64,000 nucleotides of DNA, taken from Escherichia phage UPEC06. Every line of letters begins with the position of its first letter. Within the stretch, counting starts at the first letter, position 1. The stretch is taken from the sequence record MW250786; one strand, given 5' to 3'. A program made the position numbers and the translations under genes. Positions 46,824 to 59,871 of the stretch are shown one piece after another. The notes beneath the pieces are model-generated. The model saw nothing but the letters and a program-made list of their open reading frames with translations, searched no databases and was not told where the DNA came from.

Positions 46824-47642
46824 ATGGCCTACCGTAAATTTGACCCACTGATCATTTATGAAGTTGTCCCAATGAGTATAGCCAACCCTCATGGTTTGCA
46901 ATCACCTACTCCACTTGATCATAAAACAATGATCAGGAATGCAGAGTACACTTTAAGAGATCTAGAGAATGAGGAGATTGAAAGTGCTGTGCATGGGTTG
47001 AAAGACCTGATCCGTGAACTTGATACGGATGATTCTGTTCAAGAATATATTGAAAAGTCAGAGGCACTAATCACGAAGTTTCATGAATACCGCACTAAGG
47101 TATCTCGTATTCTTGATGAAGCTTTTGATCCTTCATTAAAAGACCCGATAAAGGATGACAAAGCAATACTCTTGCTTAGTCAAATAGCTGACGCTACTGA
47201 CAACATGGACCCTGGTTTTGTAAGAGCTGATCATACCTGTGTAGATCAGTTTCCTTTAGCTTATCTTAAATCCAAAAAGGCATTCGGTAGTCTGGCTTTT
47301 GTCTGGGAGTATGAGAAAGATTCCCTTACTCGTTACATCAATCGGGTAGGTAAGAAAGATATTTCAGTTACATTGAACATCTTCTCTGACGGTTCTTTGA
47401 TGGTTCATAACAACTGGACAAAAGAAAGTATCCTCTTTGGTAAAGAAAGAGATCAGAAATTTAAACTGGTAAACTATATCCGTTTCGCAACAGAGGATAG
47501 TAAAATGGGTAAGTCATTTAAAGAGGAGGACTTTAAAACTTTCTTTGAAGACTGGCTTTCCCCAACAGAAGAAGAGATCCAACTATTCAAAGCTGTGAAT
47601 GGGGATGTTTCGTTCGACCTGTACACACTCTTTAACGAGTGA
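46824..47642 (+). CDS. hypothetical protein
   Basis: 272-aa ORF with AGGAG RBS; last gene before repeat region. Confidence 0.5.
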   Translation: MAYRKFDPLIIYEVVPMSIANPHGLQSPTPLDHKTMIRNAEYTLRDLENEEIESAVHGLKDLIRELDTDDSVQEYIEKSEALITKFHEYRTKVSRILDEAFDPSLKDPIKDDKAILLLSQIADATDNMDPGFVRADHTCVDQFPLAYLKSKKAFGSLAFVWEYEKDSLTRYINRVGKKDISVTLNIFSDGSLMVHNNWTKESILFGKERDQKFKLVNYIRFATEDSKMGKSFKEEDFKTFFEDWLSPTEEEIQLFKAVNGDVSFDLYTLFNE

Positions 47643-47770: not shown

Positions 47771-47938
47771 CCTGCCACCGTGCCCCCTCCATACTGTGTC
47801 ATTCCTGCATACCTGCACCACTAGATCAACTTAGTTGATGCCCCTTCTTACAGACTCACCCTCCAGATTCAATACGTTACTGTTCCAGTATACCTGTGAT
47901 ACAAAGCAAACATACGACACTAGTGACCAAAATAATTT

Positions 47939-48106
47939 GAGAACTTGAGGGGTTTTTCATTTTTAAGATCGTAACCTGAAAGCTGTTCACGAGAACTTGA
48001 GAGGTTTTTCGATACAGCGATTAGGAACTTGAGAGGTTTTTCATTTTTGAGTTTGCATTTGAAATTGAGAACTTGAGCTACAGGCCAGATACTTGAGGGG
48101 TTTTTC
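47939..48106. repeat. iteron-like direct repeats, 4 full and 1 partial copy of GAGAACTTGAGRGGTTTTTC
   Basis: Copies at ~47939, 47991, 48024, 48067 (partial), 48088 with irregular spacing. Confidence 0.65.
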
Positions 48107-48469
48107 AAATTTCAGTTTCATTTCAAAATTGAAAAATTTTTTATATGCACAAAAATATAGGGCTTGTCAAGGTCTTTGATAAGAAATTTTCAGGAGGTGA
48201 GAATTATTCTCATTTGCAGAATAACGGGCAGGGGTGGTGATTGCTTCGTGAAACCGTCCTCATCACCATGAATATATAATAGCACCGTTTTTGATTAGAA
48301 AGCAACAACATTTTAAAAATATTTTTCGGTAAATTTTGGGCGAGCTACCGGCGATCCACCTTACAACCTGGCGGCGATGCCTGGTATGTTAGCCCCGCCT
48401 TTACGCCGTGGGGATGGCGATTGTTTTCCTATGTAAGCATTATGGCCCCTGGCGGGGCCGTTGTCAACA

Positions 48470-48754
48470 TTATTTTTTATCTTCTTGCCAAGTAAGAACG
48501 CCTAACCAAAAATACACGTCGCCCTTAGCGTTCGGTGGTATCTTGCTTTCTTTCCCGCCAGCACACGCCCAAAGGTAACCATCGGTAAACGTATCAAGGT
48601 AGTCCATATCTTCCACCTTTCGATCCGCCAGGTTAAGGATAGTATTAACGTCTAAGCCTGTTGCGCTTGCTACCTGGTAGACCGTGCCACCTTGCCAGCC
48701 TAACGAGTGCATAAGATGCAAAGTAGTAGTAGTAGTAGTGGTGATGGTAGTCAT
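48470..48754 (-). CDS. hypothetical protein in locally GC-rich island
   Basis: 94-aa ORF; N-terminal poly-Thr encoded by (ACT)n-type repeat; only - strand ORF in this region. Confidence 0.4.
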   Translation of the reverse strand: MTTITTTTTTTLHLMHSLGWQGGTVYQVASATGLDVNTILNLADRKVEDMDYLDTFTDGYLWACAGGKESKIPPNAKGDVYFWLGVLTWQEDKK

Positions 48755-48947
48755 AGTATCGCCCTTTCTTCTGTTGTGCGCCCTGGTTGGCGCGGTAAAA
48801 AGACTATAAATGATCTTCCTTTATATAGCAAGGAAAAAGAAATTAAAAAAGATTAAAAATAATGTTGACGTAGTGAATCTGGTAGCGTAGTATTCATCTC
48901 ATCGAACGGCGACATGCCAACAAGTAAACAAATAAAAGGGCAACAAA

Positions 48948-51260: not shown

Positions 51261-51404
51261 ATGAAAACTTGTCAGTGTGGTAAAAAGTCTATTGCTGGTC
51301 TGCGTCGCGGTGTTGCTTTATGCCAGTATCATTACAATACTCAAGTATGGGGTAAAATGTGGGCTGACCAGGTTGAAGCAGCAAAGAAAGCAAAAAATAG
51401 TTGA
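51261..51404 (+). CDS. hypothetical small Cys-containing protein (below track cut-off)
   Basis: 47-codon ORF read by eye after promoter/hairpin and GAGGA RBS. Confidence 0.35.
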   Translation: MKTCQCGKKSIAGLRRGVALCQYHYNTQVWGKMWADQVEAAKKAKNS

Positions 51405-51457
51405 CAGCAAGAAGAAAAAGAGTAAACTGTATTACGTAGGGCGGCAATAGCGCCGCC
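51401..51457 (+). promoter_or_regulatory. promoter-stem-loop cassette (TTGACA-16-TAAACT + GGGCGGCAATAGCGCCGCC hairpin)
   Basis: As other cassettes; approx coords. Confidence 0.55.
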
Positions 51458-51478
51458 ACATCAAAGAGAGAAATCAAA

Positions 51479-51697
51479 ATGGCTAATATCCGCACCGTGT
51501 TAAAAAATGCAAAAGAAGTTTTATTTTCTGACGATGAATATTTTAATCGCAATATCAAAGGTGTTCGGAACATCGAGGACGTAAAGGATTTATTTGGAAT
51601 CAAAGGTAACGTATATCGTAAAGGATTGCACGGTAATAATTTTGAATATAAATTAGCTGATAGTGATTATAATTTTACACTAACAATCATTAGTTGA
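51479..51697 (+). CDS. hypothetical protein
   Basis: 72-aa ORF after cassette. Confidence 0.5.
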   Translation: MANIRTVLKNAKEVLFSDDEYFNRNIKGVRNIEDVKDLFGIKGNVYRKGLHGNNFEYKLADSDYNFTLTIIS

Positions 51698-59254: not shown

Positions 59255-59482
59255 ATGCACAATAACATCATTACCGATCGTGCCGCTACTATGCGCCCTG
59301 GCGATCGGGCACGTTTACAGATCGGCGCTTATCCGTTCCCTACTTATGACTTTTGCAAAGTAACCGCTATCGAAAACAATCCGTTCGAACCTGATACCGT
59401 GATCGTATGGTATGAAGGAAGAGGTAATAAATTTGAAGACATTTTGGGGCGAGATGAGTTATTGAATATTCTACGTTATTAA
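59255..59482 (+). CDS. hypothetical protein, paralogue of 57270-57533 product
   Basis: Start set to ATG 59255 (MHNNII) after AAGGGGGG RBS. Confidence 0.5.
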   Translation: MHNNIITDRAATMRPGDRARLQIGAYPFPTYDFCKVTAIENNPFEPDTVIVWYEGRGNKFEDILGRDELLNILRY

Positions 59483-59600
59483 TCGCCGTCTAACAGCCTT
59501 AAGCCTGTTAAGCTATGCAACCCCCTACCTTGTCCAATCGTCGCGCCCTGGTTTATGCTGGGGCGTTCTACGTTACAGCAAAATAATTTTAAAAATACGC

Positions 59601-59659
59601 TTGACGCTCGCCAGGTGAGCGGGTATATTTTATCACGTAGGGCGGCAATAGTGCCGCTC
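59601..59659 (+). promoter_or_regulatory. promoter-stem-loop cassette (TTGACG-17-TATATT + GGGCGGCAATAGTGCCGCT hairpin)
   Basis: As other cassettes; approx coords. Confidence 0.6.
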
Positions 59660-59679
59660 ACTGAAAAAGGTAAATCAGC

Positions 59680-59871
59680 ATGAAAACTATCACCTATCTG
59701 GAATCGAATAATAAATTTTTTGCCCCTGTTGATGAAATCATCGAAGCCCTGGCAAACGGTGAGGGTGTAAATGGCTTGCCTCATGCTCAATTAGTCGGAC
59801 TTGTCAAGGCAAACAAAGAATTAGCCTACTATGTAGAAAACTTTGAAACAGCAGTTATATTTACAAAATAA
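59680..59871 (+). CDS. hypothetical protein
   Basis: 63-aa ORF after cassette. Confidence 0.45.
   Translation: MKTITYLESNNKFFAPVDEIIEALANGEGVNGLPHAQLVGLVKANKELAYYVENFETAVIFTK

Follow-up and report, generated by a model that had tools for sequence, protein, structure and literature searches.

Composition and conservation of the locus

The 64,000 nucleotides (nt) of Escherichia phage UPEC06 analyzed here (record MW250786; the whole stretch is referred to as the window, and its numbering is used throughout) contain at about 48.33-48.78 kb an island rich in guanine and cytosine (GC). This island consists of two adjacent units on the minus strand, both of them old, within a block of plus-strand genes in an rV5/phi92-like myophage. 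The first unit is an open reading frame (ORF) of 94 amino acids (aa) with an N-terminal threonine run, and the second is a conserved element at 48334-48433, very probably a gene for a structured RNA as predicted from its sequence, that follows a promoter of its own. A sequence-only reading of the window had attributed the island to a recently acquired gene, but the GC peak is made mainly by the structured RNA and by GC-rich hairpins, and not by foreign DNA.

Windows of 400 nt across 48200-48799 have 46-49% GC, against 35-41% in both flanks. The 450 nt at 48330-48779 reach 49.6%, compared with a mean of 40.3% (standard deviation 3.3; z = 2.8) over the 64 kb, a value as high as which is found in only 0.3% of 450-nt windows and which forms the joint highest peak of the stretch; the island as such is therefore real. 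Taken by part, GC content is 58% in the non-coding segment 48335-48432, 59.5% in 48433-48469, and only 46.3% in the 94-aa ORF. Set against 35 long ORFs of the window, the ORF lies ∼1.6 standard deviations above the mean in GC content (41.7 ± 2.8%, maximum 47.1%) and ∼1.0 above it at third codon positions (GC3; 47.4% versus 39.4 ± 7.6%), where it is also below the maximum. Because both values fall within the range of the phage's own genes, neither is the outlier that the sequence-only reading expected of a recent arrival. To the right of about 41.5 kb, the plus strand carries nearly all ORFs of 100 aa or more, and the 94-aa ORF, described earlier as the only minus-strand ORF in the right half of the window, is so among ORFs supported by homology but not literally, as two further mechanical minus-strand ORFs occur at 51289-51603 and 59479-59790.

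Over the 2 kb around the island, the closest relative is Escherichia phage A5-4 (94.7% identity), and A7_1, A73, and W70 align over the full length at 92-95% identity. LTH01 is 96.8% identical across 63% of the 2 kb aligned in one piece, because its record (PP430345) ends inside the region, at window position 48346 within the RNA gene. Several other records begin or finish 0.2-2 kb from the locus, which may reflect an assembly or annotation convention and not a physical end. All five phages are filed under Vequintavirinae, a subfamily in which a 2024 paper reportedly places a Septuagintavirus clade, and we take the close relatives of the window to be that clade. Remoter relatives include phi92, phAPEC8-like phages, PVP-SE1, phiTE, Mydo, and many phages of Klebsiella, Cronobacter, and Pectobacterium.

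A block of ∼570 bp (48333-48905) occupies the same position in ∼130 phage records at ∼77% identity, with flanks that do not align; it is present and syntenic in all relatives examined, and in phi92, where it corresponds to gp224, orientation and neighbors are unchanged. The non-coding part (48333-48462) is conserved more widely than the ORF, with 224 phage records at 74-88% identity from genera of Vequintavirinae and Stephanstirmvirinae, most of which annotate nothing over it. The small ORF differs by genus, being phrog_19316 in the window and a DUF7170 protein in Mydovirus and Seunavirus. The non-coding element is kept beside this different protein (DUF7170/phrog_4653) in Mydo, Ro1, and PVP-SE1, and is also kept in PBES02 and KaOmega, where no small ORF is annotated.

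These comparisons bear on the proposal of a foreign gene acquired too recently for its composition to have adapted. The high local GC content (49.6% versus 40.3%), the orientation of the ORF opposite to its neighbors, and the exchange of the small ORF between genera (phrog_19316, DUF7170, or none annotated) would all suit such a gene. However, the ORF with its flanks is syntenic at ∼77% identity in ∼130 records from several genera, its GC and GC3 lie inside the spread of the phage's genes, the GC peak sits in the non-coding RNA and hairpins, and the window has no mobility gene or flanking repeat, all of which makes recent acquisition highly improbable.

The 94-aa ORF and its threonine repeat

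The features of the first unit are:

48803..48831, minus strand: promoter-like site upstream of the ORF, TTGCTA-17-TATAGT, 9/12
48778..48793, minus strand: GC hairpin GCGCC-N6-GGCGC in the 5′ leader of the ORF, read from the sequence and also present in phi92 and W70
48470..48754, minus strand: 94-aa ORF with ATG start, encoding an all-alpha small protein of the phrog_19316/phi92 gp224 family
48722..48739, minus strand: (ACT)6 repeat, part of the N-terminal threonine run, of different length among isolates

The homology search to which the sequence-only reading had pointed gives a match to phrog_19316 (E = 8.2e-50), with residues 8-94 on profile positions 2-88 of 88. The ORF is 75% identical to phi92 gp224, and the family comprises proteins of ∼88 aa beginning MTTTTLHLMHSLGWQGGTVHQVA. 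An AlphaFold2 (AF2) model is all-alpha with a predicted local distance difference test (pLDDT) score of 90, and a fold search with this model returned no match. A site equivalent to the upstream promoter precedes the unrelated small ORF of Mydo, and the GCGCC-N6-GGCGC hairpin, at the start of the predicted mRNA, contributes to the GC island on its right side.

The ORF begins ATG ACT ACC ATC ACC (ACT)6, encoding MTTITTTTTTT, in agreement with the threonine-run N-terminus described earlier. Proteins of PHROG 19316, including phi92 gp224, start MTTTT, whereas in the window and its closest relatives the N-terminus is expanded to the form MTTI(T)n. The repeat has six ACT units in the window, five in A5-4, and four in A7_1; A73 and LTH01 have interrupted runs with four or two terminal ACT units, and W70 and phi92 have the short MTTTT/MTNTT start. 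Variation of (ACT)n from 2 to 6 among close isolates supports the suggestion that the run is a slippage-prone repeat. All variants are in frame, and slippage would therefore modulate the length of the protein and not turn the gene on or off.

A promoter and a structured RNA

The second unit begins 3 nt past the stop codon of the ORF and has the following features:

48439..48467, minus strand: P1, sigma-70-type promoter TTGACA-17-CATAAT, 11/12, the best in the region
48444..48459, no strand assigned: GC hairpin GGCCCC-TGGC-GGGGCC in the P1 spacer, from the sequence
48334..48433, minus strand: structured non-coding RNA, allele 1, with nhmmer and covariance-model matches and 58% GC
48404..48419, minus strand: helix P1, CGCC (48419-48416) with GGCG (48407-48404), loop AUCCCCAC, invariant in 28-29 of 29 sequences
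48393..48413, minus strand: pseudoknot helix, loop CCCC (48413-48410) with GGGG (48396-48393), A-rich bridge UAAAGGC, compensatory changes
48360..48392, minus strand: helix P2, irregular hairpin, one nucleotide bulged on the 5′ side, tip variable, with a covarying pair
48339..48355, minus strand: conserved 3′ tail AUCGCCGGUAGCUCGCC, common to both alleles and the endonuclease insertion point in other phages

Promoter P1 (TTGACA at 48467-48462, CATAAT at 48444-48439) keeps its hexamers and 17-nt spacing in 37 distinct relatives, with -35 variants TTGACA/TTGCAA/TTGACG and -10 variants TATAAT/TATACT/TATATT/TATAGT/CATAAT. The spacer sequence varies among the 37, with a mean of 73% GC, and 28 of the spacers fold at -3 kcal/mol or better. 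The spacer hairpin together with the T-rich -10 hexamer may double as a stop signal for the transcript of the ORF. The first RNA helix lies ∼20 nt past the -10 hexamer and ∼14 nt past the predicted start, and the transcript predicted from ∼48432 to 48334 comprises a 13-nt purine-rich leader, the pseudoknot, the bulged hairpin, and the conserved tail.

The proposed fold is carried by an alignment of 29 sequences, in which 88% of cells are paired, compared with 26-49% when the partners are slid, and in which double changes affect more cells, and the covariation score is higher, than in any of 500 shuffles. The pseudoknot helix occurs as CCCC/GGGG, CUCC/GGGG, CCAA/UUGG, and CCAG/CUGG, and at one pair of helix P2, 18 sequences have A-U, 10 have G-C, and one has G-U. 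At least six unrelated hairpin sequences give the same bulged shape, including a minimal GC-UUCG-GC from a metagenome. G-U pairs are found in the minus-strand sense only. A 17-nt unpaired tail with a conserved AUCGCCGGUAGCUCG is kept across both alleles described below, and no intrinsic terminator was found after the RNA on the minus strand in scans of the window or Mydo.

The GC-rich stretch might alternatively code for a small protein, such as a plus-strand 56-aa ORF at 48408..48578 that exists mechanically or the hypothetical proteins annotated under the match in several GenBank records, although most records annotate nothing there. The hairpin tip and pseudoknot loop vary in length by 1-6 nt among relatives (indels of 1, 2, 4, and 5 nt), which excludes a coding frame, and conservation peaks at the predicted pairing without a third-position pattern, so that a coding role is barely credible.

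Several other candidates were tried and rejected. ARAGORN finds no cloverleaf of a tRNA or tRNA-like gene in the window or in 18 related loci (comparison loci and contigs are cited below by L numbers), and it finds no tRNA where tRNA-Ile is annotated in OY978796.1 (L029, 9360-12402), a record in which the annotation (tRNA-Ile, tRNA-Met, and many pseudo coding sequences) is out of register with the sequence. The pseudo-ToxI antitoxin mimic of phiTE sits at phiTE 106.7 kb and not at this locus, and a mimic of host DNA or an antisense RNA was dismissed because BLAST against 5,426 E. coli genomes gave no match. The GGA motifs of a possible CsrA sponge are absent from allele 2, the positions of a DnaA box or GATC site in GGATCGCC/ATCCACC vary without constraint, and variation in a GGUGG-CCACC pairing is uncompensated. 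A search of one collection of full-text papers found neither the core RNA sequences nor the name Proteo-phage-1, the RNA family considered below.

Two alleles and a putative homing endonuclease

A5-4 is nearly identical to the window at this locus except for another interior of ∼60 nt between CGCC...ACGGCG and ATCGC(C/T)GG. The form in the window, which carries no endonuclease, is referred to here as allele 1 and the form with the A5-4-type interior as allele 2. Allele 2 is found in at least 12 records from several genera, including Ro1, cardinal, P7_Pc, KP12, NDO71, P8734, FKP3, A5-4, and A7_1, and a diverged form of it occurs in Erwinia phages. Intermediates from metagenomes and Erwinia phages (L069, L074, L033) combine features of the two alleles, which supports their common descent.

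In Ro1 and cardinal, direct reading of the sequence shows the tail of an allele-1 copy interrupted (GGATCGCTGGTAC|AACG...); next come a gene for a 197-aa HNH endonuclease (phrog_953, E = 8e-79) and a full-length allele 2 that is preceded by a TTGACA-hairpin-ATAATC promoter of its own. The organization of P7_Pc is related, a broken allele-1 tail of different sequence being accompanied by a full allele-2 copy. A5-4, A7_1, and KP12 have allele 2 with no endonuclease, as gene-conversion tracts would leave. The pattern is what would be expected if a homing endonuclease attacked a conserved gene and brought along a replacement, here the diverged allele 2, that is presumably resistant to cleavage. 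Free-standing homing endonucleases beside stable-RNA genes are exemplified by SegB in the tRNA cluster of T4, and the HNH gene of Ro1 and cardinal is similarly placed, inside the tail of an RNA gene. The RNA gene appears to be both target and passenger of a putative homing endonuclease. Horizontal exchange is real at this locus, but it lies inside the RNA gene, in the two alleles and the endonuclease, and not in the ORF.

The HNH gene has the same insertion point in at least two genera and two subfamilies, represented by Ro1 and by cardinal, a Justusliebigvirus; P7_Pc is a Certrevirus. The endonuclease loci are L021 6420-7013, L030 928-1521, and L031. The endonuclease mRNA of Ro1 has the truncated allele-1 RNA as its 5′ leader.

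Relation to Proteo-phage-1

Proteo-phage-1, reportedly a candidate RNA motif of Weinberg et al. from 2017, is filed in Rfam as RF03044 under 'Gene; sRNA' with unknown function. The model has a gathering score of 42 bits, and contig L107, used as a positive control, scores 76.6 bits. Allele 2 of Ro1 reaches 21.6 bits against this cut-off of 42, over the whole model and on the same strand. An independent covariance model, R2, was built from 24 aligned viral-contig sequences that match conserved Proteo-phage-1 motifs, one of which (L107) is confirmed. In this alignment the pseudoknot and hairpins covary, with double changes in 12 of 17 pairs overall and in four of five pairs of the pseudoknot helix. 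Applied to 203 kb, model R2 finds exactly five copies, all of allele 2 (E = 4e-4 to 0.02), with helices in register.

The likeness extends to strand and to the order of parts, which are a hairpin whose loop pairs downstream to give an H-type pseudoknot, a second hairpin, a linker of ∼14 nt, and apparently a tail CCGG(C/U)AGC. Allele 2 shares with Proteo-phage-1 a 4-bp hairpin with a loop starting AUAGCCG, a 14-nt linker, and the tail CCGGCAGC. The window has helix 1 of RF03044, between a loop segment and a downstream segment, as CCCC/GGGG. For the Proteo-phage-1 tail AACaCCGGCAGCC, the window has AUCGCCGGUAGCU, 7/9 identical to CCGGCAGCC, and Ro1 allele 2 has CCGGCAGCU. The loop of the second Proteo-phage-1 hairpin (GAUaAGCCGG..AGUGC) has no counterpart in the window, where the tip is CAUCGCCG, variable in allele 1 and without AGCCGG. 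The pseudoknot linker is a plain A-rich strand in the window and an inserted hairpin in Proteo-phage-1, and the RNA of the window, unlike Proteo-phage-1, has its own sigma-70 promoter and no terminator. Direct matches of the window to Rfam were limited to chance-level hits to Histone3 and to a 12-nt CRISPR-DR18 hairpin, which fall on the promoter-spacer hairpin and were discarded. We treat the RNA of the window as a putative divergent variant of Proteo-phage-1 that is not a member by Rfam's criteria.

Bona fide Proteo-phage-1 RNAs occur in contigs of 40-60 kb in the lambdoid order NinB, NinG, Q-like protein, RNA, holin, and terminase, and in another subgroup a CI-like repressor gene precedes the RNA and an exonuclease gene follows it. 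The Q-like protein (phrog_3412/3373) weakly matches the Q-like phrog_304, and its homologs are found in Pseudomonas phages only, one of them annotated as an antitermination regulator. Judged by these homologs, the bona fide members appear to belong to temperate, lambdoid phages of the Pseudomonas type. These RNAs (∼240 nt, terminated) occupy the position of the lambda pR' leader ('6S RNA') between the Q and lysis genes, whereas the RNA of the window does not. Lambda Q itself engages a DNA site and a paused polymerase and not a conserved RNA fold.

In L107 (9116-9350) and ∼110 other viral contigs (L080-L199), ∼150 nt are conserved past the 82-nt Rfam model and are followed by an intrinsic terminator. 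The Rfam model apparently covers no more than the 5′ domain of an RNA of ∼240 nt that lies between the Q-like and lysis genes. A search of the rV5-like loci with nhmmer --max for the downstream domain of ∼150 nt gave no match at E ≤ 10.

The neighboring non-coding hub

Four to five copies of GAGAACTTGAG(R)GGTTTTTC lie at 47930-48110 of the window (cf. L004 1950-2210 and L029 1770-1890). These repeats resemble an iteron-type hub that may serve as an origin or in regulation. Other genera have other short repeats and A/T tracts at the same place, such as GGGTCTCGATC in phiTE and CGATCGAGAACC in Mydovirus. A palindrome, TGAGAATTATTCTCA, is present at 48198-48212, and other genera have one to four nearly invariant copies of AATGAGAATGATTATCATTCAA (L061 960-985; L005; L029), which agrees at 14-15 of 19 positions with the Fur-box consensus of E. 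coli. Conserved Fur-like operators would be unusual in a virulent phage. On the other side of the hub, at 46824-47642, every genus examined encodes a 272-aa protein (phrog_12463) that has no Pfam match.

Further tandem minus-strand promoters are present 3′ of the RNA, at ∼48215-48305 (cf. L005 2287-2472), and Mydo has five in 650 bp. The second of them has the following counterpart in the window:

48276..48305, minus strand: weak counterpart of the second tandem promoter (promoter P2), which is strong in other genera, with the window copy below the scan cut-off

This second promoter is preceded by a direct repeat, TTTGTAAAGAAnTGTAAAGA. A plus-strand promoter at the upstream TATAAT was rejected as having no usable -35, the minus-strand reading giving a proper second promoter. 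In a conserved CATRGCG...GAGACAAACACC(N5)TGCCCGYYATTC, changes that appear compensatory point to a possible second structured RNA.

This setting raises the alternative that the conserved block acts as DNA or through the plus strand, either as part of an origin or regulatory hub or as a terminator that would keep transcription of the upstream operon from continuing antisense into the ORF. The block borders a non-coding hub of ∼1 kb that holds A/T tracts, iteron-like repeats, palindromes resembling Fur boxes, and as many as five tandem promoters, and the genome map of rV5 has an unplaced origin and a 'non-coding' box (PMC3606486) that may be this region. The complement of the CGCC/GGCG hairpin, with the pyrimidine run after it, is flagged as weakly terminator-like on the plus strand of both the window and Mydo, and termination there is a possible second role of the first hairpin. 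However, a 4-bp stem with a tail of mixed C and U is a poor terminator and leaves the covariation of the pseudoknot and hairpin unexplained, and each G-U pair would turn into an A-C mismatch if the plus strand or duplex DNA were the functional form. The iterons differ across genera while the RNA is constant, and the related Pseudomonas RNAs are not located beside the origins of replication genes, so that a role as DNA or through the plus strand is unlikely.

A possible function at the start of early transcription

The explanation that we prefer as a whole, in which the island comprises two old units and the RNA is a module comparable to the put RNA of phage HK022, is given a probability of roughly 40%. 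Its mechanistic part, a promoter-proximal module acting in cis on host RNA polymerase, is put forward tentatively. Host RNA polymerase would start at promoter P1, and the RNA would always be the first thing transcribed and would fold by itself. The module would then act on the transcribing polymerase, as put RNA does, and the modified polymerase would run leftward through the adjacent hub of promoters, palindromes, and iterons. The RNA would probably be among the first and most abundant products of infection.

A cis-acting module is favored because the RNA is promoter-proximal, has no terminator, and is conserved across hosts that share transcription machinery, because its Proteo-phage-1 relatives occupy sites where lambdoid phages place antitermination signals, and because its size, its position, and its construction from two domains recall put RNA. 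The latter is ∼70 nt long, lies just downstream of PL, and consists of a stem containing a triplex and a bulged stem (PMC9378689). It suppresses pausing and termination by binding the zinc-binding domain of the RNA polymerase beta' subunit. The RNA of the window is likewise an RNA of ∼70-100 nt directly 3′ of a strong early sigma-70 promoter, with a first domain in which a third strand would lie in a helix groove and a second with a bulged nucleotide, and its extreme conservation would suit host RNA polymerase as a partner, as for put (PMC9378689). The endonuclease cassette, which brings its own promoter together with its copy of the RNA, also counts for this mechanism. In contrast to the RNA of the window, put has no classical pseudoknot, and it has clear downstream terminators and genes to read through, of which none are evident in the rV5-like phages. 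That the module represents a second put-like, protein-independent class, shared by lytic rV5/phi92-like phages of Enterobacterales and temperate lambdoid phages of Pseudomonas, is doubtful.

Several points weigh against this explanation. The likeness to put is one of architecture, taken from a published description, and there is no obvious need for antitermination downstream on the minus strand in rV5-like phages, where the neighboring genes are convergent and no minus-strand gene follows. The start, end, and abundance of the RNA are all predicted, and helix P1 is supported by topology only because CGCC/GGCG does not vary and so shows no covariation. The link to Proteo-phage-1 is also indirect, with no RF03044 match at E ≤ 10 in 48300-48480 and with model R2 missing the window and every other allele-1 sequence in the 203 kb, so that allele 1 is tied to the family by allelism, intermediates, and shared parts. 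A shared protein partner was rejected, as the Q-like protein is absent from rV5-like phages. Finally, the Pseudomonas module with its ∼150 nt of additional conserved RNA and its terminator fits a discrete small RNA (sRNA) equally well.

The possibility of a trans-acting sRNA is nearly as likely as that of a cis-acting module and is a better fit to the terminated Pseudomonas form. Such an RNA would be made early from promoter P1, freed by processing or by Rho, and would bind a conserved host or phage partner through the AUCGCCGGUAGCUCG of its tail or through the pseudoknot. The strong promoter of its own, the conservation of the 17-nt unpaired tail in both alleles, the filing of the related family as an sRNA, and the Pseudomonas relative as a discrete unit bounded by two intrinsic terminators are all consistent with this possibility, and an endonuclease cassette with a complete replacement copy is what a needed gene product would call for. 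However, the RNA has no terminator or defined 3′ end in rV5-like phages, and BLAST finds no complementarity or similarity in E. coli genomes, although short seeds are invisible to BLAST. The module is also always directly at the start of the transcript, a placement that a trans-acting RNA does not need.

Implications

For genome scanning, the island illustrates that a local rise in GC within an AT-rich phage can point to a structured RNA and hairpin signals and not to foreign DNA. The RNA gene, previously unannotated, has a near-consensus host promoter and is found in more than 220 genomes from phages of many host genera, and its link to Proteo-phage-1 joins an orphan RNA family to tractable phages of E. 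coli. The rV5-, phi92-, PVP-SE1-, and phiTE-like phages in which it occurs have wide use in therapy and biocontrol, and their early region is mostly unexplained. If the RNA is indeed a put-like module acting on host RNA polymerase, Proteo-phage-1 would gain a function, and this would explain why the endonuclease carries a resistant replacement copy with its own promoter.

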